The notes beneath the pieces are model-generated. The model worked only from the letters and a program-made list of their open reading frames with translations. It was not told where the DNA came from and made no database searches. This document shows, one piece after another, positions 7,102-64,000 of a DNA stretch of 64,000 nucleotides. A program made the translations under genes and the position numbers. Position 1 is the stretch's first letter. Every line of letters starts with the position of its first letter. Origin of the DNA: Eledone cirrhosa (taxonomy: Eukaryota); assembly GCA_964016885.1 (NCBI GenBank), contig OZ024742.1, positions 101,928,001 to 101,992,000 of the forward strand. The letters run 5' to 3'.

Positions 7102-7916
7102 ATCATCATCATCGTCATCGTTTAACATCTGTCTTCCACACTAGCATGGGTTAGACGGGAATTGTCTCACTTGAGGCAAGATTGATCGGGTGATCGTGTC
7201 TCGCTCGTATAGAACTGTATCTGGCAGGTTTTCTATAGCCGGATGCGCTTCCTAACACCAACCACATTTACAGTGTGGACTGGGAGCCTTTTTACCGTGT
7301 TTGCTACATGACCACATTACAGCGTGGACATCTACACAACCTCTTTAGTTTGGACTGGATGTTGTGGTACGAGCATAACTTTACAAAGAGAGAGTGGTGT
7401 TGCTGGGAGTGGGAGGATGGAATAGGGGTAGTTAGTTGGAGTGTATATTTGGTTAAGAGGTGCCTACTGACTGTAGGTTAACTTTGCACGCAGGGAAGGA
7501 GGTCTTCTGTATTACTGCGTGGTATCAAAGATCTCGATCCAGTGACATTGTCTTAGAGAGGTGTAAGTGTGCAAGGTCGCAGGTTTTTCTGGATCTACCT
7601 ACTCCATAACTACCATCAATTTTGATCGCCCTGCACTTTTTTATATAACTGTCTTTCATGCTCATCACATGACCATACCAACGTAATCTTCTCTCAAGTA
7701 AACAGCATCTGATCCCTCTTATTCCTAATTTCTCACTTGGTTCGTCTGTTTTGCCGTTCGTGTATATTACTATGACACATCCAACGGAGCATGCATGCTT
7801 CGTTCCTTTCCAATCTGTGCAGGTCCTCTGCACACAATTCCTATGTCTCACTGCCATGTAACATTGGTGTTTGTATACAAGCATCATACAATCTGCCTTT
7901 CATTTTTAGAGAGAAA

Positions 7917-14142: not shown

Positions 14143-16245
14143 TTTTGAGTCATGACTTAATGTGGTGTTCTGTTTATGAATATGACCCGAAAGTTACCTG
14201 TTACCTTCCAAAACATGTCCAGGCTAGCATGAAGACAGATACAATGGCAACGCGAGTGTTAGCCCTTGCACCATACGTCACTTCCTTGACCTTGAACTCA
14301 ACTCTCTCTGTATTTTTAGAATGCCATTTAGAATTGGTTCATCTTCTGTTAAATTCGGTTGTCTTTTTACGTGTCCAGTGCCACCCTGTCAATACGGAGT
14401 CAAACTGTTGTTGGAATATTATTGAAACTTTTCTAAAGCATGGCAAACTACAAGAATTTTCTTTGACTTTTGCCAAACGTAATGATGGCTTTGTCGGCTT
14501 CTTTGAACGTTTAATGAAAATTTGTGCTGGCATTCATGAATCTGACATTGTTCAAGATTCTAGCTTTGACTGTGATATATCTGATTGTTCTGAGGATGTG
14601 TTTGATGAAAATCCTGAGGGGGTTATAAACAATCTCGAATGTAAGAATGTTTATGATTTTGATTCTTCTATAGCCAAAAAACTGAAACTTCACTCAGAAA
14701 GTATATATTTTTATAATAATAATGATAAAAATAATAATGACTCTGGTGATAATCTTAATAATTGTCAAAGAGTATTTAATAATTCAAATTCTTTGTTTGA
14801 TAGTATTGGTGCTGTTGATAAGAATGATTGTAGTACAAATTGTGGAGATAACATTTCTGATGTTAGCAAGATGCAGCAGGTTTTAAACGAGAAACTGCGA
14901 TGTGAGAAAGAGTTCAATAGCTCAGCAGTCCATAAATTTAGTTGTTGTCAGATGAAGTTTAGAGAGAAAAAAGGAAAGAACAGAGATGCTCCTTTAACAT
15001 CTTCTGAAGAAAACTCACTGCTTACTTCGATGCTTTGGCATCAAAATCTTAATTCGCAAACCTCTTCTTCCAATGAATCTCATTGTCATACAAATATTGA
15101 AGCCAGTCCTACATCTCGTAAATGCCTGAGGTTTAGTCGGTTTGATTCCAAAAATCATGTTATCACCCCTTATTCGAAAAACATGAACTGTCTGAATGTG
15201 TCTTCAAACCAATTTGTAATGAATTGCTGCCATATAAAAGAACATTCAATTACTGCAGACAAGCTTTGCAAGCTCTGCTCCTATAGAATGAACAACTGTT
15301 TTCAATCCATGACTTCTTGCCCACATTCCATAAAGTTTGAAACTAAACGGAAGGCCTCCTATTCAGTATTAAATGCACTTCTCTCAAATTCTTATGATGA
15401 ACTTGCAGAAGCGAAAAAACTTCGACCTGCAGATCGATATCGTTACTGTAAGCCATTAGGAAAAGAATTTGGCTTCTGCTCTTCAACTGGGAAAGATTCT
15501 ATGTCACCATTTGACAATTCCTGGGATGATAATCTGCCAGTTTCTGGGTCTCTCTGCGAAAAAAATATTTCTGTTGTGAAGTGTTACCAAAATGCTGATG
15601 ATCTATCTCAAAGTGAGAAAGCCTCAAAAACACCTGATATGGGTTCCAGTACAGAAAGTGAAGTGCTTAATACAGATAGTTCAATAAGCTCAAGTGACAT
15701 TTCAACAGTGAATGATACATCTTCTGATCAAAATGGCTTTGAATCTTTTATAGGTAAGATAAAAGAGGAAAATGGAATATCAAACAAATCATGTTTTAAG
15801 CCTCCTCCCAGTCCCATTGGAAAGAAAAGAATACACTCTAGTGTAGATATAAAATCACGGAGAAATTCACCTGTCGATATCATGACATCAAAACAACTGG
15901 AATCCCGCCGAGTGTCATTTGATATCTATGCTGATTTAGATGAAGGCATTGTTTCTGAGGAAGAAACAACAAACCCCAAAATGGACTCTCCATTGTCAGG
16001 TTCGCAATGGCTGTCACCTTCAAACTGTAAGCAGTCTTCGCCAATATCAACACCAGGAAGCACCAAATCTGACAATTCATTGTGGGACCTTTGCTTGGAT
16101 TTGTCTAAAAAGATGCATCATTATTCATCAAAGGGTCTGAAATCACTGAGGCTTATTGGTGAACCTAATCCCCATATAGGGGATGTTTTAAGAGATGTTC
16201 TACCGATGTGGCCAGCTCTGCAAAAGTTGTACTTGAATGTATCTG
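14143..16245 (+). CDS. LRRC41: LRRC41-like 2.1-kb exon: LRR-like ends around a Ser/Asn/Asp-rich, probably disordered middle
   Basis: Long polypyrimidine tract + cag and gtaagt donor; open for ~700 codons (ORF 14145-16304); YVTSLTL and GLKSLRL...WPALQKLYLN LRR-like motifs; phase 1-1. Confidence 0.9.
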
Positions 16246-17325
16246 GTAAGTGTTATTTAACTATAAGATTTAATCGTAATTTTATTTTTGTTATTATTAA
16301 CTGAAGACCTTCCCATAATTTAAGAGGGCAGTCAAAGCTATAAACTTCATACAAAAGGTAAACTACTGCAGAAACTGGTATAGTAATTATGTTCAGTTCT
16401 GCAGATCATCACTTAGAGCTCTGTTAAGTACTTCTGCATCAGGTTGTATTGTACAGCTGAAGAAACCTTAAGGATAGCAGCCATGACTATCCTTTTCTAA
16501 GACTTCATTGTCCAATGTGTTCTTTTTTTATATGATTGGAGGTTTATTTGGTCCCTATTTCTTGTAGGTTATGTGCACATACAGGGACTCCAGTTTTTAC
16601 TGTGATATGTGTGCATGTAAACCTTTCATTGTTCTCAGATCTTAGCAGTAACAAGTTTAATAACTCTGCTTATCACTGTTCCTGCTATGTTGAAAAGTAT
16701 GTGACACTGTCACTTCACAGTTGAGTGGGTAGCAGTTGGACAGACAGGAACTGCTCCTACATGTGAAGCTGAAGGAAGGAAATTTATTGCAGGTTATATG
16801 TTGGCACAGTTCCAGGTTAGCCACTTTTCAGCAGACTTATATGATCAAAAATGTTCTAGCTGAGACCATTCCTTCTGTATATCAAGGATTACATTATTCA
16901 ATGCATCCTTTTAAAATTATTTGAGGAAGATTTGGCTGATATTTCTAGAAGGCTGAGTAACCACATAGAGGCTCTTTAAATGGCATTTTTACAGAATGAC
17001 CAGAATTATTGAATAGTGACAGCCAGTTTGGATTGTACTCTGTGCACTCATTCAGTTGAATGCAGGAACATATGTAAGCTAGATGTGGCCCCTGACCCAT
17101 CTCAGCAGTCTGTGGCTCTGGCAAAGTACAGACATGGTCTGTAACAACCTGTCTAACCCTTGCCTAATGGAAAATGGTTATTAAATGGTGTTGATATAAG
17201 ACAAGATATATAGGGGAATCAATTTTACTATAATTTTCAAAACTTGGTCATGATTTGCTAATTTTCAATGCTATATTTCTCACATGTAGGCTGTGTGTTT
17301 ACTGGATATTGTTTCTACATTTCAG

Positions 17326-18619: not shown

Positions 18620-19080
18620 ATAAGGTGGTAGTGTTGGGGCCTACCATGTAAGATAGTAGTGCTGGTGCCACAACGAAAAGCACTCTGTACTGTAAGGTAG
18701 TTGTGCTGGTGTCATGAAAAAAAGCGCCGTGTCCACTCTGTAAGGTGGTAGTGCTGGTGTCACGATAAAACGTACCCAGTCTACGCTGTAAGGTGGTAAT
18801 GTTGGTGCCACGATAAGCGTCCAGTCCATCATGTAAGGTAATAGTGTTGGTGTCACAATAAAAAGCAGTCTGCACAGTAAGGTGGTAGTGCTGGTGCTAT
18901 GATAAAAACCTCTATCTGCACTGTAAGTTGGTAGTGCTTGTGCCATGATGAAAAGCACCCTGTTTATAATGTAAGGTGATAGTGTTGGTGACGCGACAAA
19001 AGGCACCCAATCTACACTGTAAGGTGGTGGTGCTGGTATCATAAAATGCTCTTAGTATGTGCTGTAAAGTAGTTGAGGTC
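18620..19080 (+). repeat. ~48-bp tandem array derived from an RTE/SINE 3'-UTR module
   Basis: About 9-10 diverged units of gctggtgccacgataaaaagcacccagtccacactgtaaggtggtagt. Confidence 0.8.
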
Positions 19081-23824: not shown

Positions 23825-24380
23825 TATAAAAAAGTGCAGGGCGATCAAAATAGATGGAAGCTACAGAGTAGGCAGACCCAGAAAAACCTGGGACGATTTG
23901 ATAAATTCCGACCTTACACACTTTCACCTCTCCAAGACAATGTCACTGGACCGAGATCTTTGGCGCTATGCACTAATACAGAAGACCCGCCTTGCCTAAG
24001 TACAAAGCGAAACCTACAGTCAGTAGGCACTTCCTAACCAAAAATACACCCCCATCCCACTACCACTACCCCACCCCCATCTACACCACCCCTTTCTCTG
24101 TAAAGTTATGTTGGTGCCACAACATCCAGTCCTAAACAAATGAGGTCGTGTAGGTGTCATGACAAAAAAACACAGTCCACGCTGTAATGTGGCCGTGTAG
24201 GTAACACGATAAAACCCTCCCAGTCCACACTGTAAACGTGGTTGGTGTTAGGAAGGGCATCCAGCTGTAGAAAACCCGCCAGACAGTCCTATACGAGCAA
24301 CGCAACCAATCTTGCCTCACGTGGGACAATTCCCCATGCTAGCGTGGAAGATAGACGTTAAACGATGATGATGATGATGA
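23825..24380 (+). mobile_element. 5'-truncated RTE copy
   Basis: IKKCRAIKIDGS...GRPRKTWDDLINSD...KTRLA*, 3' UTR and (GAT)n tail; very similar to 61133-61680. Confidence 0.92.
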
Positions 24381-26442: not shown

Positions 26443-27108
26443 CTTCTCTTTGATCAACCATCTTTGTTTTGGTATTAGTGGCAAGACTATCATCATCATC
26501 ACTATTTAATGTCCATTTTCCATGTTTGCATGGGTCACTGAGGTACTCAGGTGACTGTCTTGCTTGTATGCTCCAGTTTTGACTTGGTTTCTACAGCTAG
26601 ATGCCCTTCCTAATGCCAACTACTTTACAGCATGTACTGGGAGTGACTCCAGCCCTACCACCTTACAGGGTGGACTGGATGTTTTTTTTATCATGGTACC
26701 AACATTACCATTCTACAGAGTGGACTAGGTGCTTTTCGTCATGACACTTGCACTTCCACTTTACAGATGGGCTAGGTGCATTTTATTCTGGCACCAGCAC
26801 TACCTCATTACACACTGGGATGCTTGGTGTGTCCTTGGTCAAACTGGTGTAGCATTGATGGGAGTAGGGGCAGGTTATGCTGCTTGGTAGGGTAGGGAAT
26901 GGGAGAGACATTCTCGTGTAGGTGAGGAAGTGCCAGGTGGCATCTACATATTTGGTCTTTCAGAACTGAATATATTGATTTTGGGGTTCTCTTCCTTATA
27001 TATACAATGTACTGGGTGTGTTTTATCAAGACACTAGCACTTGAGAGGTTGACATAACTAGTCAATCCTCTTGTCCATCTATTTCTATATTTATTGATGT
27101 GTGTGTGT

Positions 27109-33010: not shown

Positions 33011-34405
33011 ATCAAACTGTATCGTCTGAAAAAAAAAATCTATTAAATCAATTTTGAAAATTGTATCAGGAAAGAAGTCAGGATGGTCACAGCTGGAATA
33101 TCAGTCCAGTAAAAATGTGTTGTTTTTCTGTAGTGTCTGGCCTGATAAAACAGATTAATTAGGTTATGGGAATGGCTAAGCATGATACATAGACTCATAA
33201 GCTCTGGATATGCTGTACCTCTGTTCAGTAATTGTTAACTGTATGAGGTGTGTTGCAGTCTAGATGTGTACTCCCACCATTCTCCACTGTTTCTGTATCA
33301 TCATTTTATGTCTGCTTTCCATGCTGGCATGGGTTGGACAGGTTGTTACAGTGTGAGACCAGTTTGGTCAGATTGACCTATCTTGCTCTTACATTTCCTA
33401 TTTGGCATGGTTTCTGTGGCTGAATGCCATTCCTAATGCTATGTATGTTTGTAGAATTTTGCTGTATCTGTGATTGGCAAGTAGAACTTGGCCTGAATGC
33501 GTCTGTGCACTTATTATTGGTGCTATTGTTTGGAACTATTAAAACTTGGTGTTTTTCTGTGTATGTCACATCATCATCATCATCATCATCATCATCGTTT
33601 TACATCTATTTTCCATATTGGCATAGGTTAGATAGTTTGTCATGTGCTGAGATTCAACTAGTTAAGTTACCATGCTTTTCTCAAGCTTTCCATTTGGCAT
33701 GGTTTCTATAGATGGATGCTCTCCCTAAATCCAACCATTTTACAGCATGTACTGGGTGTATTTTATTGTGGCTCTGGCACAAACACCTTACAGGGTGGAC
33801 TAGGTATTTTTATCATGACATCAGCATTACCACATTACAGGATGGACTGGTTGCTTTTTACTTTGGCACCAGTATTACTACCTTAGTATGAACTGGGTGC
33901 TTTGTATTGTGACAACAGCACTCCCACCTTATGGGGTTGATTAGGTGCTTTTCATTGTGGAACTAGCACTACTAGCACTATTTATTTGTCCTGAGTGGAA
34001 GAGTTAGTTTTTAGGCTACTGTTGTGGAGAATTATACATGTGCCACTTTGTTTAGGAGTGATTGTATATGTTATAGTAGGAGCTATGAGGGTCAGAGCTT
34101 GTTACATCCACAACCTGTGCACCCCACAATGGCCAGATTCATATTTTTGAGTGTGCTGGTTGTTTCTAATTAATGTTCTCTGGTGTTGTTGGTAAGGGAC
34201 ATATTGAATTTTGTAGGTATTACTTTAAATCTGTTGTTTGAATGCCAGTTATTAAGTGATTGGTATAGTATTGGAGTAGTTGGGTAACTGTTTGGAAAAT
34301 ATTAGTGGAATGATCAGGTGTGTGAGAGGTTGAAAAGAGCAAGTGAAAGAACTGTGGCAGGCTATTTGTAAAACTGCAGATTCTAGATATGTTGATATTG
34401 TATAC

Positions 34406-50640: not shown

Positions 50641-53600
50641 CATCATCATCATCATCATCAGCGTTTAACGTCCGTGTTCCACGCTTGCATGGGTTTGGAC
50701 GGGGGTAGTCCCACTTGAGGCAAGAGTGATTGTCTTGCTCGCATAGGACTGTCTGGCAGGTTTTCTACAGTTGGATGCCCTTCCTAACACCAACCACATT
50801 TACAGTGTGGGTCTGGGAGGTTTTTACCGTGTTGCCTACACGGCCACATTACAGCGTGGACTGTGTGTTTTTTTGTCGTGACACCTACACGATCTCATTT
50901 GTTTCGGCCTCGATGGCGCGGCACCAACATAACTTTACATAGAACGGGGTGGTGTGGATCGGGTGGGGGTGGTGGGACGGGGTGTATTTGTTAGAGATGC
51001 CTACTGGCTGGAGTAGGTTTTACTATATATTTAGGTAAGGCGGGTCTTCTCTGTTACTGAGTACCGCCAAAGGTCTCGGTCCAGTGACATTGTCTTGGAG
51101 AGGTGTAAGTGTGTGATGTCGGAGTTTATCAGCTCGTCCCAGGTTTTTCTAGGTCTGCCTATTCCGTGACTACCGTCTATCTTTATTGCCCTGCACTTTG
51201 TTATACAGCTATCGACTTTCATGCGCATCACGTGTCCATACCAACGTAGCCTTCTCTCGAGTAAACAACATCTGATCCCTCTTATCTCTAATTTATTCCT
51301 TAGTTCGTTTATGCTTTGCCATTCACGTATATTACTGTTACACATCCAGCGGAGCATGCAAGCTTCGTTCCTCTCTAGTCTGCGTATATCCTCTGCACAC
51401 AATGCCCAGGTCTCACTGCCATGCAGCATTGCTGTTCGTATGCAGGCATCGTACAACCTGCCTTTCATTTTTAGTGAGAACCCTTTAGCAGCTAATAGTG
51501 GTATAAGCTCTCTGAACTTTTTCCAACCAGTTCTGACTCTAGCTACAGTACTTTCAGAGCACCCTCCCCCACTGCTGATTTTATCGCCCAGGTAACGGAA
51601 GCTGTCCACTATTTCTATAGAACCCTCTGCGCAATTGAAAGAGCTAGTAGTTTGTGGGCACTTGCTGCTACTTATTGCACCAGAGCACCGGCCACATGTA
51701 AAATCTATGTTCTTAGTTAGCCTACCTGTGATCCCACTACATCTTTTATGCACCCATACTTTGCATTTAGGACATAAAATGGAGTTTCTACCTACGCCTT
51801 TCCTACACACCGAGCACGACCATTTCCCAGAAGGGACCGCCGCCTTGTTTTCTTTCCTACAAACTAGTACTTTGGTCTTAGCCAGGTTAATTTTAAGTCC
51901 TTTTGACTCTAGGCCGTGCTTCCATGTTTGGAATTTCTTCTCTAGCTCGGCCATTGATTCCGCTATGAGTGTCAGGTCGTCTGCGTATAGGAGTTCCCAT
52001 GGGCAGCCTGTCTTGAACTCCTCTGTTATGGCCTGAAGGGCAATAATAAATAGTAGTGGACTGAGAACAGAGCCCTGATGGACGCCGACTTTTACGCTAA
52101 ACTCTTCACTATATTCGTTGTTAATTCTAACCTTGCTGACTGTTTCTTTATACATGGCTTGTATAGCCCTCACAAGCCATTCGTCAACGCCTAGTTTTCT
52201 AAGAGCCCACCAGATAATGGAGCGGGGGACTCTGTCGAAGGCTTTCTCCAAGTCGACAAAAGCTAAGTAGAGGGGTTTACCTTTAGCTAGGTACTTCTCT
52301 TGTAGTTGTCGTACTATGAAAAGAGCGTCTGTGGTACTTTTGCCTGACACAAACCCGAACTGCATTTCATCTAGGTCAATTCTCTCTCTGATTAGTTGCG
52401 CTATTACTCTTTCCGTGACCTTCATGACCTGGTCGATTAATTTAATGCCTCTATAGTTACTCCTATCTAGGGCGTCTCCTTTACCCTTATAACAGTTAAC
52501 GATGATGCTGCTATGCCAGTCCTTCGGAACAACCCCGTTTTGTACGACTTGGTTAACTATGCGGGTGACCATGGTGTGTCCCACCGTGCCAGATGCCTTC
52601 AGCATCTCAGCAACTATTTCCGAAGGCCCAGCCGCCTTACCAGTCTTCATATCCTTGATTGCCTTACTTATTATACTCCCCTCGACTAACACTGCTGGTC
52701 CCTCTATTGGGTCGATATGGGGGAGACTGCCTTTCTCCCAATTATTCTCCTCATTTAGAAGCCTTTCATAGTGACACTTCCAAGCTACCTTCTTATCAGC
52801 GTCGGTGATGGCAAGTGTGCCATCGTCGTTTAGTACACACTTCTCCCCGACAATATCACGGTTTTCCTTGACGCATTGCCTAGCAATCCTGAACACCTCA
52901 CGTTTTTGGTCATCGCGTTGTAGAACATGCTTGAACTTTCTTTCCTCAGCTTCCCTTCTTGCTAAGTACACTTGTCTCCTAGCTTCCCTCCTGGCCACTT
53001 GATAGTCCTCTCTACTTCCCCCATCCCGCCATACTTTCCAAGCCTGCTTTTTGGCCTTAATTGACCCCTCCACCTTACTGTTCCACCACCATGTTACTCT
53101 CCTCCTGCCTACAGGCCTGCTCCAGCCACAGACCTCGTCTGTCGCCAACAGCAGGTTTGCTTTCAGAAATTCCCACTCTCCCTCTATATTGTCCGACTGT
53201 AAATGTTCTTCCTTACTGTCGAAAGCATCAAGTAATATGCTTTGAAATTTATTCCTGGCTGTGGGGTCCTTTAACTTCCATATTTTCCTCCTGAGGATAG
53301 TCCTCTTCTGTTGTCGAGTACGTCTCGTCCTGACTATGAGGTCGCTAATTATCAGTCTATGTTGGGAGGTGCATTCTTCATGGGGGAGGGATTTAGTGTT
53401 AACAACAGACACTCTGTCACGTCTTCTGGTAAGGATATAATCTACCTGGCTTGTGTGTTCCCCGGATCTATAGGTGATCAGGTGATTGTCACGTTTTTTG
53501 AAGTTAGTGTTACAGATAGTTAGGTTATTTGCATCACAGAATTCCAGGATTCTGGAGCCTTCCTCATTTCTAGTACCAAACCCATAGCCTCCATGGATTT

Positions 53601-54186
53601 CGTCGTAGCCGTCACAATGTTGTCCAACGTGACCATTTAGGTCGCCTGCGATAATTATATAGTCACTGTCGGATATTTGGGAGGTAGTTAGCATCAGTGT
53701 CTCATAGAATCTGTCTTTTATAGTGCCGGGCAGTCCGGATTGGGGTGCGTACGCAGATATTACTGTCACCGTAGTTCTATTGAGGACAAGTCGTATTTTA
53801 ATTATTCTGTCGTTCACTCTATTTACGTCTATTATCTTATCTGCCCACTTTTCTGCTACCATGATTCCTACTCCACCCAGCCCATCGTCGTTTCCCACCC
53901 AGAAAAGCTTATAACAACGTTTTTTACCCTCAATGAACCTAGCAGACCCACCCCTCCACCTGGTCTCTTGAATACAACAAACATCGACCTCCTTACGTTC
54001 AAGCATTTCTACAACCTCGTTAGCGCGACCCTTTAGGGTGCCTACATTTATGGTACCAACTCTGAAGTTTTGGATTGCGTTTGGGGGTTGGGGGCGGTGA
54101 GGGGCGGGGGGCGATGGGGTTATGTTAGCCGTCCGCGGTCGAAACAATGAGGAGTGCTCGCATTCTCGTCCAAGGGGTGAATTTGT

Positions 54187-54190
<4 letters not shown>
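50641..54190 (-). mobile_element. Near-full-length RTE-clade LINE retrotransposon
   Basis: Single open frame; ~390-bp 3' UTR ending ggacgttaaacgc(tga)n; 5' end abuts an (AT)n tract; GC richer than the flanks. Confidence 0.95.
51031..54189 (-). CDS. RTE ORF: APE endonuclease + reverse transcriptase with internal PHD finger
   Basis: GTINVG, CIQET, GDLNGH, QVDY, SQHR (APE); GKAAGP, NYRGI, FVDLEKAFDRV, GVHQGSVLSP, LLYADD, FRYLG (RT); RRLRWYGHV and GRPRKTW (RTE C-terminus). The N-terminal 39 aa of the ORF-track protein is microsatellite read-through. Confidence 0.95.
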
Positions 54191-54222
<32 letters not shown>

Positions 54223-54849
54223 TATAAATATATACATGCACATATGTATATCATATATATATATATATGTATATATTATACAACACACCAAGCATTTTAA
54301 GGCCATATATATATAATTCCCATTAAGGATTTCATGTCATTTTAAGTGTGTGTCGATAAACCTTGTCACTTAAACAACATATCACCAAAGAGATCCCCCA
54401 CATGGGTCTCAGTATTTTGTCGTCCAACAATACCGCCATCTCTACATAATACACATCTGAATTTCATTTCTTAACTCTAGAATCCATTTCTGTTGTCATT
54501 TTGTTTAGTTTAATATTTTATTTTTTGTTTTGTTTAATACAGTTATTTTATTGATAGCTTTTGCAGCACAGCTTCCATTTAAAAACGTCTTGAGGCGACA
54601 AAACACATTACTTTGTTATGAGTTAATTGTCTTGATAGCTCCCATGCTGGATTGCATTTAGTGTAACTTTAGACGAGGATGTCTTTAATAACAACCTAAT
54701 TAAGTCTCGGCATCTTTCTAAAGGTTTTTACACTGTAATGCTAGCTGCCTGTGAATCCGATCACAAAGGATTCTATTACTCTTGTAACCAGCTTCCATAT
54801 CCAAACCACCTTCAGGCAATTGCATCCTGTTTCTCTCACTCATATATAT

Positions 54850-58538: not shown

Positions 58539-60940
58539 ATGTGCATTTATATATGTGTGTATATACACATGTATATATGTGTTTGTATGCCCCTCTACAT
58601 ATTCTAACATAGTAATTAGGTGTCAACTGGGACCATTGAAAAGTCTTGTACTCAATGAATTTCACATTGTTACCATTCTCAATGGGATGGGAAATGGGGG
58701 GGGGGTTTTCTGGCGACCATTTCAAGACAAAATCTTATAATTACTGAAAGTAGGAAAGCTTTCCTGTATTACTGTCTGGTGGTGGTGGTTGGCCTGTGAT
58801 TGTTGGTGAGTGGTGGTGGTGTGAATAATAGTTATGGAAGTAATGGTGGTGGCATGATGGCTGGGGAGATTGCCTTCTTTTACTGCTGCTATTAATTTCA
58901 TTTGCTAATTTGACATTTACTGGCATTACTATTGTGGTTACAAATGTTTAGAGATCTGGAGTAAATAAATGCCTTATAGGAGTTCAAAACCAACAATATG
59001 TCTTTGTACGAATATAAGAAATCATTTTAAATTCTTTTGATGCCAAATCACCTGAAGTCACCTCTGGTTCTGTGATATTAGGATATTTATTCTCACCTTT
59101 CATTGCCATATTTTTAATGAGATCCACAGCCTGATTAATTTAAAAAATAACCACAAATTTGAAGAAGTTGAATAAAATAATTAAGATTTCATTAGTAAAC
59201 TGGTATTTAGAACATTACTTAACAAACATTTCTGATGGCCAACTATACTACCAACCCATCTATCCAAATTTCTGGTTTTGTAACTTTGTTAAAAACAGTA
59301 TTTATAGTTATACCTGAAAAGATAAATAATTGTCATCACTGTTTAATGTTCAATTTCCATCCTTGCATGGGTTAGATGGTTCAGGTGTCTGTCTTGCTAG
59401 TAAACTCTGTATTGGGTTTGGTTTCTACAACTGGACATTCTTCTTAATACCAACCAACATTTCTGGTAGCATTTTATCATGACGCTGGCACTAGTATTGT
59501 ATTGGGTGCTTTTCATTGTAGTATCAGCTCTATCACTTTACAGACATGGGCTGGGTAGTGACTTTTCACTGTGGCACCAGCACTACCATCTTACAGGGTC
59601 GGTTGAGTGCTTTTCACCTTGACATCTACTGCCTTACGGGGTGAACTGGGTACCTTTTGTCATGGTACTAGCATTACCACTTTACATAGGTGGACTGAGT
59701 ACCTTTTGTCATAGGACCAGTATGACCACCTTACAAGTTGGATTGAGTATATTCATCTTGGCACGAGCAGTACCTCTTTACAAGTTGGACTTGGTGCTTT
59801 TTTTTTTTTTTGTAGTATCATCAAACGGAAAAGAGTAATTTACCTGATTTATTTGACTATTCTGTAGTTAATATGTACCTTATGGCAGCTTTTCATAATA
59901 AAAGCAAATAGATATCAAACACACACATACAAATTTTCATAAGGCCAAGTTTGAGTCTTGTTACTCTAGAGTTTCTCCTATGTACTTACAGGCTCATTAG
60001 ACAAGTAAGTGCATATGTGTCTTCGCGCATGAGAAAACTCAAAAAGGAAAAATAACACAATACAATAATTGTTTCTACTTTAGGCACAAGGCCAGCAAAT
60101 TACCCAGTGCATTACTGGTACTTTATTTTATCGACCCCATAAGGATGAAAGGCAAAGTTAACACAACACAATACAATAATGATAGTTTAATGCTTGATAT
60201 AGTTGGAAAAGAGTACTGAAGATTAAGAAATAGATGAATACATTAGCCCAAGGAACCATTTGGAGGAGAGATGAGCTCCTGTTTTGAAAGCAAAGCCAGG
60301 TGCAGCATTTGTCATCTGGCACAGTTGGCAATGAAAAGGGCAGTCACCATGTGTGTGTGTGTGTGTGTGTTTCCTGGTAAGATATTGGAGAAATAAAAAA
60401 AATATAAAGATTATGGCTGTTCTTTTGATTTTATGAAAGTAGGGCGATGGGGTAGTCATGTTTTAGTTGAAAATGTTGGTTCTTTAAATTTGTTGTTTTG
60501 AGGTCATTCTTTTAATTATGTCTGTGAAATATTGATTTCTAATTTAAGCACAGGGCCAATAAATTCTGGAAAGGGCAAATTGATTAAATCAGCCTTAGTA
60601 CTTGATTGGTACTTTATTTTATCAACCTTGAAAGGATGAAAGGCCGGTGGAATTTGAACTCAGATTGTAAAGAGCCAGGACAAATACTGCAATTACATTT
60701 TAGCTGTTGTTTTACCAATTCCACTCTCTGAAATGTTGACATCATGTCTGAAAATATTGACATTAACTTTAATGAAGTTTTTAACATGATTTTTATTCAC
60801 TATTTTTTTTTTTAAAATAGGACTTTTAGCTAGTGTTATTTCAGTCTCTTGTCTGGAAGGGTACTGGGCTTTGATCAAGGTAGTGTCTGTGTGTGTGTGA
60901 GAGAGAGAGTATATGCATTTTTGTATATGTATGTATATGA

Positions 60941-60980: not shown

Positions 60981-61680
60981 CATGCTCCGCTGGTTGTGTG
61001 ATAGTAATATAGTGAACGGCAAAGCATAAACGAACTAAGGGAGAAATTAGGAATAAGAGGGATCAGATGTTGTTTACTCGAGAGAAGACTACGTTGGTAC
61101 GGTCACGTGATGCGCATGAAAGACGACGGCTGTATAAAAAAGTGCAGGGCGATAAAAATAGACTGTAGCCGCGGAGTAGGCGGACCCAGAAAAACATGGG
61201 GCGAGTTGATAAATTCCGACCTCACACACTTACACCTCTGCAAGACAATGTCACTGGACCGAGATCTTTGGCGCTACACAGTAATACAGAAGACCCGCCT
61301 TGCCTAAGTACAAAGCGAAACCTACAGTCAGTAGGCACCTCTAACAAAAATACAGCCCCGTCCCACTACCCCACCCCATCCTCACCACCCCTTCCAATGT
61401 AAAGTTATGTTGGGACCACAACATCCAGTCCGAAACAAATGAGGTCGTGTAGGTGTCACAACAAAAAAAAAAACAGTCCACGCTGTAATGTGGCCGTGTA
61501 GGTAACACGGTAAAAACCTCCCAGTCCACACTGTAAACGTGGTTGGTGTTAGGAAGGGCATCCAGCCGTAGAAAATCCGCCAGACAGTCCTACGAGCAAG
61601 ACAACCAATCTTGCCCCAAGTGGGAAAATGCCTGTCCAAACCCATGCTAGCGTGGAAGATGGACGTTAAACAATGATGAT
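60980..61680 (+). mobile_element. 5'-truncated RTE copy of the same family as 50641-54190
   Basis: Encodes ...ERRLRWYGHV...RDLWRY...KTRLA* plus the same 3' UTR and (GAT)n tail; (AT)n on both sides. Confidence 0.92.
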
Positions 61681-61702: not shown

Positions 61703-61822
61703 ATAGGAACGAGTATGACCCCGACGGCTGAGCTCAAGCCGTTTTGACGGCTAATTCTGGACGTCCAGAATTAGCCGTCGAAACGGCTTGAGCTCAGCCG
61801 TCGGGGTCCTACTCGTTCCTAT
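61703..61822. repeat. 120-bp spacerless palindrome (2 mismatches)
   Basis: Centre ctggac|gtccag at 61762/61763. Confidence 0.95.
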
Positions 61823-62483: not shown

Positions 62484-62584
62484 AACACACATACACATAT
62501 ACACACATAAAAACACACACATACACATATATATAAAAATATATTTATATACATACATATACATACACACATACATATATATAT

Positions 62585-62631
<47 letters not shown>

Positions 62632-62650
62632 TATATACATACACACACAT

Positions 62651-62697
<47 letters not shown>

Positions 62698-62766
62698 CAC
62701 ATATAAATACACTCACACACATACATACAAACACAAATATACATGTGTATACATATACACATAAAT

Positions 62767-62809
<43 letters not shown>

Positions 62810-62818
62810 CATACATAT

Positions 62819-62861
<43 letters not shown>

Positions 62862-62933
62862 CATACATATATATATATATATATAAAATACAAATACACA
62901 CACATATATACATATACACACACATACACACAA

Positions 62934-62968
<35 letters not shown>

Positions 62969-63096
62969 CATAAACAAATACACACACATATATACATATA
63001 CACACACATACACACAAACACACAAACACACACACACACATATATATATATATACATAAACAAATATATACATATACATACACACACACATACATA

Positions 63097-63144
<48 letters not shown>

Positions 63145-63162
63145 TATATAAGGAAAAAGCAC

Positions 63163-63230
<68 letters not shown>

Positions 63231-63285
63231 CACCATTCATACATATATTCATATATATATACATACACATATATATATATATATA

Positions 63286-63342
<57 letters not shown>

Positions 63343-63395
63343 ATACATACATACATATATACACAAATACATACACACATATACACACACACACA
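62484..63395. repeat. Compound (CA)n/(TA)n/(GA)n microsatellite
   Basis: Directly visible. Confidence 0.95.
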
Positions 63396-64000
63396 ATACA
63401 AAAGTGAGTTACAAACGAAACGAAATTTAATTTCGTTTCGTTATTTGTTTTTATCGTCTCCGCTGAACCGGTACGTACTCACGCTCTATGCAAATTAGTC
63501 TGCCCACTACTAATTTTCATAGAAAAAGCATATAACGATATGTGCTTTTACGATTCTCTAGAAAGGCCGGAAGATAGGTAAATATTGCTGATGAGATGTA
63601 ACAACATCGAAACTAGTCCAATATTCCTTGTCTGGCTTTCTGGAGAATAGAGGAAAGGTGTTTCCTCGAAAACCAGTATGACTCTAAAAACCGGTTTGTC
63701 TGTGTGTTTACATACAGAATAGCTGGACACTCACAGTAAAGTGTCCAGTGAAAAACTCGGTACATCTACATATGTACACGTGTGTGTATTCATATGCATA
63801 CTAGTATTTCAGTATACATATGTGGATGTACATTTTTAATTTAATTGTTTAAGCGTCAGTCATACAAAAGTGAGTTACAAACGAAACGAAATTTAATTTC
63901 GTTTCGTTATTTGTTTTTATCGTCTCCGCTGAACCGGTACGTACTCACGCTCTATGCAAATTAGTCTGCCCACTACTAATTTTCATAGAAAAAGCATATA
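63396..64000 (+). mobile_element. 466-bp tandem hammerhead-containing repeat (non-LTR retrozyme or Penelope-like pLTR)
   Basis: 63396-63534 is identical to 63862-64000; the unit contains the hammerhead and many hairpins and starts directly after a (CA/TA)n tract. Confidence 0.8.
63581..63625 (+). ncRNA. Minimal type I hammerhead ribozyme with intact core
   Basis: Stem I AAUAUUG/CAAUAUU, CUGAUGA, stem II GAUGU-aaca-ACAUC, GAAA, palindromic stem III (A)CUAG(U), GUC cleavage triplet ending at 63618. Confidence 0.92.

Follow-up and report, generated by a model that had tools for sequence, protein, structure and literature searches.

What is the 466-bp sequence that is repeated head to tail at the 3′ edge of this octopod locus, and what does its elaborate fold serve? 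The stretch analysed here (the window, 64,000 nt of the Eledone cirrhosa genome) ends in 1.3 copies of the unit, and we consider it highly probable that this is a metazoan non-LTR retrozyme: its RNA would be split into monomers and closed to circles, which Penelope-like machinery would then put back into the genome. Repeat identity ends exactly at 63396, the 5′ end of the element in the window, and the window stops before the hammerhead of the second copy. No further copies were found elsewhere in the 64 kb. The units lie head to tail, not as two LTRs around a core. Read circularly, the repeat has a longest ATG ORF of 19 aa on the + strand and 50 aa on the − strand, and the ORFs immediately upstream are microsatellite frames.

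Eleven tblastn segments between 4105 and 39257 (+) trace a conserved uncharacterised cephalopod gene, a homologue of LOC115215002. It includes a 2.1-kb exon at 14160–16253 that shares 81% identity with a protein of Octopus sinensis and 69% with one of Argonauta hians (3 matches); the homologue P0001 has no Pfam match. The last ~85 residues of this gene are unmapped, so the element may be intergenic or lie inside the last intron. An unbroken 1101-aa stop-to-stop frame at 51031–54336 (−) carries AP endonuclease, reverse transcriptase and PHD finger domains and appears to be an intact LINE, which we take to be RTE-like, with LINE 3′ fragments at about 61008–61325 (+), 23825–24017 and 7525–7899. 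Eleven diverged copies of a further family (D18) with a 64-nt core are scattered over 223–56003, some as inverted pairs (e.g. around 560–660), and presumably resemble an octopus SINE. Short tandem arrays of 47–49 bp are dispersed on both strands (18645–19046, 26643–26836, 33768–33957, 59571–59806 and others).

Table 1 Features of the 466-bp unit and its immediate flanks.
Feature	Position	Strand	Basis or remark
(CA)n/(TA)n/(AG)n microsatellite tract, ~900 bp; probable insertion target of the element	62487..63395	.	TRF; directly 5′ of element
Full unit of the probable retrozyme	63396..63861	+	466 bp, non-coding, 36% G+C
Closing helix GUGAGU/ACUCAC, 6 bp (63404–09 with 63477–82)	63404..63482	+	P 0.97 in circle, 0.28 linear
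Perfect hairpin, 13 bp (14-nt arms, 1 nt between)	63414..63442	+	No variant among listed substitutions
Mostly unpaired U-rich linker	63443..63454	+	Unpaired probability 0.5–1.0
Hairpin, 14 bp, one C·U mismatch	63485..63523	+	Two variants, A-U to G·U
Hairpin, 11 bp, 1 G·U	63524..63549	+	Circular MFE
Long arm, 18 bp, 2 G·U, hammerhead at tip	63553..63648	+	Folding
Type I hammerhead	63573..63632	+	Rfam Hammerhead_HH9 full-length match
Predicted self-cleavage site, after C63618	63618..63619	+	Hammerhead_HH9 alignment; GUC in this copy
Hairpin, 7 bp	63650..63667	+	Circular MFE
Hairpin, 8 bp, 1 G·U	63699..63718	+	Circular MFE
Hairpin, 10 bp	63722..63749	+	Both members of three neighbouring pairs altered in one minor variant
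Long hairpin, 19 + 8 bp, 3 G·U, purine-pyrimidine alternations	63760..63831	+	
Weakly paired U-rich linker	63832..63857	+	Ensemble pairing
Start of second head-to-tail copy	63862..64000	+	139/139 bases identical to 63396–63534; ends with window

The most informative part of the unit is the ribozyme. The initial annotation placed a hammerhead at the tip of a long arm, and a canonical type I hammerhead is indeed located there (Table 1). An outer helix I (63573–77 with 63628–32, 5 pairs) and an internal loop 1 (GUAA/UCC) are joined to a 6-bp helix I (63582–87 with 63619–24). The core comprises CUGAUGA (63588–94) and GAAA (63609–12), and a 4-bp helix II (63595–98 with 63605–08) is capped by loop 2, UAACAA. 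Helix III (A-CUAG-U) has just 1–2 bp and is formed by the palindrome ACUAGU (63612–17). These proportions of 6, 4 and 1–2 bp are those of the canonical metazoan type I hammerhead, whose short helix III is palindromic and depends on a partner in tandem, as described in PMC4209133. Positions 63570–63641 (+) match Rfam Hammerhead_HH9 (RF02275) with 38.9 bits (E 2.7e-8), below the 52-bit gathering score, and an Rfam scan at gathering level returned no match. The structural match is full-length and includes internal loop 1 and the 6-nt loop 2; unlike HH9, the octopod helix III lacks a 5-nt loop, and the motif lies here in a mobile tandem repeat.

Among the 37 listed Rfam matches of a scan to E 10 there is no − strand ribozyme, and a relaxed search for the core likewise gave hammerheads on + only. 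A further hammerhead, in decayed form, was considered at 63640–63671 and rejected (one core mismatch, three extra bases, and G63668 is a minority allele), and Rfam matches to microRNAs and sraA lie far under their cut-offs and reflect the hairpins. Searches of other sequence collections with a strict hammerhead pattern returned 0 metagenome loci; a looser pattern returned 14 metagenome loci and 0 viral loci, and outside the ribozyme core none of these is similar to the unit, the best match being 38 nt. Four related metagenome contigs (L003, L006, L009 and L014) have in common a motif like a type I hammerhead, in which the palindrome is again ACUAGU and the cut site is GUU; it adjoins homologous flanking sequence, and the contigs are otherwise unrelated to the 466-bp unit. 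Other hammerhead-like motifs occur on contigs L002, L004, L008 and L012.

We then considered how so short a helix III might act. When a fragment with two copies is modelled, the double hammerhead (−195.4 kcal/mol) lies 0.4 kcal/mol above the minimum free energy (MFE) structure (−195.8 kcal/mol), and two single hammerheads (−178.4 kcal/mol) lie 17.4 kcal/mol above it. In the modelled monomer circle, the active single hammerhead costs 7.4 kcal/mol because CUG pairs with UAG. These energies describe secondary structure, with tertiary contacts outside the model; in the ensemble, the helix III between copies has a probability of only 0.04–0.08, and the ends of the folded fragment may favour helix swapping. 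With these bounds, the modelling favours cleavage as a tandem dimer rather than as a monomer. The axolotl hammerhead HHR_Amex1 of the salamander and newt satellite retrozyme, as presented in PMC7229834, has a comparable layout, with a one-pair helix III, a palindromic tetraloop and a retained loop 1/loop 2; in the same account 6% of it is cut as a monomer and far more as a dimer. The octopod unit resembles HHR_Amex1 in its predicted dimer-dependent cleavage, a likeness of description and not of sequence. Most invertebrate type I hammerheads are reported to have a stable helix III and to cut as monomers (PMC7229834, PMC7761336); the weak helix III of the octopod hammerhead looks amphibian-like despite the invertebrate host.

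The unit was also proposed to fold almost entirely into a branched array of hairpins. All nine arm pairs quoted in that proposal are present at their stated or implied coordinates, and all form in the circular MFE structure. The + strand circle folds to −154.0 kcal/mol (z −11.0, 0/100 shuffles as good), and the circular − strand to −133.8 kcal/mol (z −8.3, 0/100 shuffles as good). As a linear molecule, 63396–63861 reaches −157.1 kcal/mol on + (z −11.9) and −139.5 kcal/mol on − (z −7.4), again with 0/100 shuffles as good in either case. Branching sets the unit apart from 136 background tiles of the same size drawn from the rest of the window, each counted on its best strand: ten helices with at least 7 robust pairs on + compare with at most 8 in any tile, and 128 robust pairs with at most 117. 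The description as branched is thus well founded, whereas "almost entirely" overstates the pairing, which is 67% in the MFE structure and 66% in the ensemble; pairs with p > 0.7 include 262 of the 466 nt.

The energy itself is not unique in the window, since 4 of the 136 tiles reach −157.1 kcal/mol or lower. Three of the six lowest-energy tiles have z between −13.6 and −15.8, and the two lowest have only 2–5 long helices. The tile with z −15.8 holds a near-perfect ~119-bp palindrome (~61704–61822), which directly follows a (TA)n tract and may represent a MITE or foldback insertion. With DNA parameters the unit gives z −11.2 (+) and −10.1 (−), so that energy alone cannot separate RNA from DNA structure.

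This leads to the strand on which selection acts. G·U mismatches had been taken to imply selection on + strand RNA rather than on DNA structure; selection on the + strand is supported, mostly by other evidence, and the G·U counts are suggestive. Within helices defined without G·U on either strand, 1×1 loops comprise 5 G·U (+), 0 A·C and 1 other (one-sided p 0.03), and strand-specific folds give 8 G·U against 4 (p 0.19). The 17.6 kcal/mol energy gap between strands was dropped as evidence, because a gap as large or larger occurs in 47% of the 136 tiles. The long arm reaches −35.3 kcal/mol (z −5.5) on + against −24.5 kcal/mol (z −3.2) on −; an alternative 13-bp hairpin at 63791–63822 is favoured on the − strand, as is the hairpin at 63670–63697. 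Firmer evidence for the + strand comes from the ribozyme, found on + only, from its near-invariant core and from helix II covariation among copies.

These last two observations derive from contigs of public sequencing runs. Six runs from three studies contain the stretch, and variants were taken from contigs of four of them, whose library kind is unrecorded. Run X1 holds 1238 variant contig pieces on the unit with a summed depth of 1.3e5–6.7e5, which is not a copy number, and the share continuing into unlike sequence is 0. In run X4, a 495-nt contig consists of a 465-nt unit and a 30-nt end overlap and so forms a closed cycle, a result equally expected from a tandem array and from a circle; from this cycle, a second complete hammerhead would be expected in tandem. 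X4 and X6 are labelled as other organisms and match at depth 2–10, which could be trace carry-over and is not accepted as evidence of transfer between organisms.

At a threshold of 5% within a run, 36 substitutions are listed at 34 positions, and 16 of the 17 hammerhead core and closing positions are free of variants. The sole variable core position is C17, which changes to U, with GUU making up ~76% of X1 depth; a GUU site is cut more slowly than GUC. This change is allowed by the RUH cut-site rule as given in PMC7936874. In helix II, A63596-U63607 is replaced by U-A (44% and 32% of X1 depth at the two positions), and one X5 contig has both changes, their linkage being judged by equal depth. 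A minor X5 contig differs at both members of three adjacent pairs in the 63722–49 hairpin, with linkage again drawn from equal depth.

To weigh these changes, variant positions were permuted 20000 times over pairs with p > 0.8, ignoring relatedness. Pair-breaking variants number 5 against 11.7 expected (P 0.004). In helices common to both strands, 2 are seen against 8.1 under + rules (P 0.004) and 4 against 7.1 under − rules (P 0.11). Compensated sites number 8 against 0.8 expected (P 0.0005), and single-site variants that keep pairs are at chance (7 against 6.7, P 0.54), so that the signal rests on four compensated pairs. Three of these four are adjacent on one minor contig and may be one event, the variants are not independent, and 63744 T>A, which entered the count as compensated, gives an A·A mismatch with no compensation in most X1 depth. 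Compensatory changes among copies are thus present, one of them in helix II, and the covariation they suggest is real but thin. An A-to-I editing signature was not seen among the listed substitutions (A>G 8 against T>C 10; TpA context 4 and 5).

Could the array now be ordinary satellite DNA, in which the ribozyme is vestigial, DNA recombination spreads the copies, and template switching at inverted repeats makes and perfects the hairpins? We regard this as very improbable, even though several of the observations above suit it: folded as DNA, the unit stands out no less than as RNA and is almost alike on the two strands, foldbacks of equal strength occur elsewhere in the window, a single template switch could have made all three neighbouring compensatory changes on the one contig, and 5 of the 9 listed C>T or G>A changes fall at CpG, as in methylated DNA. 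It accounts poorly for an unpaired catalytic core that is conserved while 34 other positions vary, for covariation in helix II and a 5:0 G·U bias, and for ends that lie at several unit positions, in microsatellites.

Those ends are seen directly in the contigs. Fifteen of 52 loose ends are listed, with 1–4 contigs per site. Among the listed ends, five X1 contigs end after 63454/63920 and continue into (TA)n, two pass from 63851 into (TA)n, and one contig has (GT)n before 63697. Both (TA)n junctions show TA-type microhomology and lie inside unpaired or weakly paired U-rich linkers. The (TA)n/(GT)n joins therefore occur at three different unit positions, to which the window adds its own 5′ end at 63396. 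Penelope-like elements (PLEs) are described as biased to microsatellite targets (PMC8557442), and the junctions match this bias. In one X1 contig, an inverted copy of the 3′ arm is joined at 63620, at an AATATT palindrome just past the cut site, either as in PLE insertions or as an assembly artefact.

The same bias invites a second alternative, in which the repeat is the pseudo-LTR (pLTR), a partial tandem end, of an autonomous PLE whose ORF lies beyond the window. PLE pLTRs share type I hammerheads, tandem structure and microsatellite preference with the octopod unit (PMC4209133, PMC8557442), retrozymes are held to be of PLE origin and derived from pLTRs (bioRxiv 2026.07.22.740005), and the sequence downstream of the second copy is outside the window. 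Yet the PLE hammerhead is reported as a minimal type with a helix II of 7–8 bp and a helix I of 4–5 bp (PMC4209133), whereas the octopod motif has canonical proportions with loop 1 and loop 2. The unit itself has no ORF; in X4 its ends join up into a cycle, and the X1 depth contains no share that continues into unlike sequence. We therefore hold this explanation to be very improbable.

The fold had also been likened to that of pelamoviroids. The likeness in shape stands as an analogy, since pelamoviroids and other Avsunviroidae have a branched multi-hairpin fold, a similar size and a hammerhead; membership does not, as the octopod unit is single-polarity, type I, AT-rich, chromosomal and from an animal. 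Avsunviroids are reported to have hammerheads in both polarities (PMC5680766), and here one is found on + only. Where theirs is a type III hammerhead blocked by a long complement, the octopod core is held by 3-bp local pairing. The window also contains two ACCGGT palindromes (63467–63472 and 63690–63695) that may pair with each other over 7–9 bp. As a nested helix ACCGGU/ACCGGU has P 0.47 in the linear and 0.02 in the circular fold, and the two could be a candidate kissing or dimerisation contact; a kissing-loop pseudoknot is a pelamoviroid feature. An infectious, pelamoviroid-like or other circular RNA that replicates from RNA to RNA and leaves DNA copies behind would share the size, branched fold and hammerhead, might use the palindromes for a kissing contact and could explain the low-level matches in runs labelled with two other organisms, but we give it hardly any credence, given a type I rather than type III hammerhead that is not blocked by a long complementary strand, no − strand ribozyme, a G+C of 36% against about 55% (PMC5680766), copies joined to genomic microsatellites, and other-organism matches at a depth (2–10) that could be trace carry-over.

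A single type I hammerhead in a chromosomal tandem repeat is the definition of an animal non-LTR retrozyme, which places the unit with retrozymes and not with viroids. Every testable feature of that class is found: a short head-to-tail DNA repeat measuring a few hundred bp (the 466-bp unit and the X4 cycle), non-coding sequence with G+C below 50% (36%; ORFs ≤50 aa), multiple copies (the 1238 variant pieces of X1 and several distinct microsatellite junctions), a type I hammerhead with an intact core in the unit, and a highly self-paired predicted monomer circle (z −11.0; 66–67% paired). In bioRxiv 2026.07.22.740005 an element counts as active when two successive units both have a complete hammerhead; the window reaches only the first 139 bp of the second unit. 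Metazoan non-LTR retrozymes as described by Cervera & de la Pena (2020; PMC7229834) include mollusc examples (Mytilus galloprovincialis, units of 350–390 bp) and likewise have tandem non-coding units with G+C below 50%, one type I hammerhead per unit and a self-paired predicted circle. The octopod unit differs in its cephalopod host and majority GUU site. At 466 nt it exceeds the 170–400 nt RNAs and 150–450 bp repeats of that paper and falls inside the 51–972 bp range of bioRxiv 2026.07.22.740005.

For the retrozyme, we propose the following cycle. Read-through transcription would yield multimeric + strand RNA; U-runs of 4–5 argue against Pol III. Since helix III has just 1–2 bp in a single motif, neighbouring copies would join through their ACUAGU palindromes, forming a 6-bp helix III, and, in the model, be cut after position 17 as a double hammerhead. 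The ends of the resulting 466-nt monomer would be held in helix I and ligated to a circle, probably by RtcB, as in other species. Within the modelled circle there is no partner, and a 3-bp CUG/UAG extension of helix I would hold the core off. The branched fold is predicted to form the compact, stable body of this circle, with the hammerhead on one long arm and a few unpaired linkers. From the junctions, a Penelope-like RT/GIY-YIG enzyme may use a nicked (TA)n/(CA)n target for priming, at the unpaired U-rich linkers, and copying around the circle would leave copies in tandem whose ends are permuted. Cephalopods are reported to have PLEs (PMC8557442 and the giant squid genome paper). Counting against our explanation, 8 of 9 Xenopus retrozyme dimers are reported as uncut in vitro (bioRxiv 2026.07.22.740005).

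How new is this? In literature listings and abstracts we found no report of a cephalopod retrozyme, and PMC7229834 does not use the words 'octopus' or 'cephalopod' in its main text. For the giant squid genome, 235 Rfam hammerhead_1 loci are listed in the genome paper, so cephalopod hammerheads as such are not unseen. The branched, viroid-like fold of retrozymes is already in print (PMC7761336, PMC5680766); with the class, the fold and the viroid resemblance published (PMC7229834, PMC7761336), the element is a useful further example for specialists rather than a surprise. What is distinctive is the long unit, the amphibian-style weak helix III in an invertebrate, the majority GUU site and the permuted microsatellite ends.

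A bolder reading, which we put forward as possible yet unlikely as a whole, is that this is the first cephalopod retrozyme, a very abundant 466-nt circular RNA with a doubly throttled ribozyme (dimer-only helix III and majority GUU) that cuts in tandem transcripts and is shut as a circle, and whose genomic ends map Penelope RT priming to unpaired U-rich linkers on (TA)n. If this is true, the ends would testify directly, at the sequence level, that a circular template is copied, a step so far proposed but unproven. Under the same reading, and in a cephalopod host with very high A-to-I editing, the long stems could be a major ADAR substrate. As a probable retrozyme, the element extends ribozyme-made circular RNA elements to cephalopods, and it offers a test case for two open points of the retrozyme model: why the hammerhead that such circles carry does not cut them again, and whether Penelope machinery uses the circle as its template.
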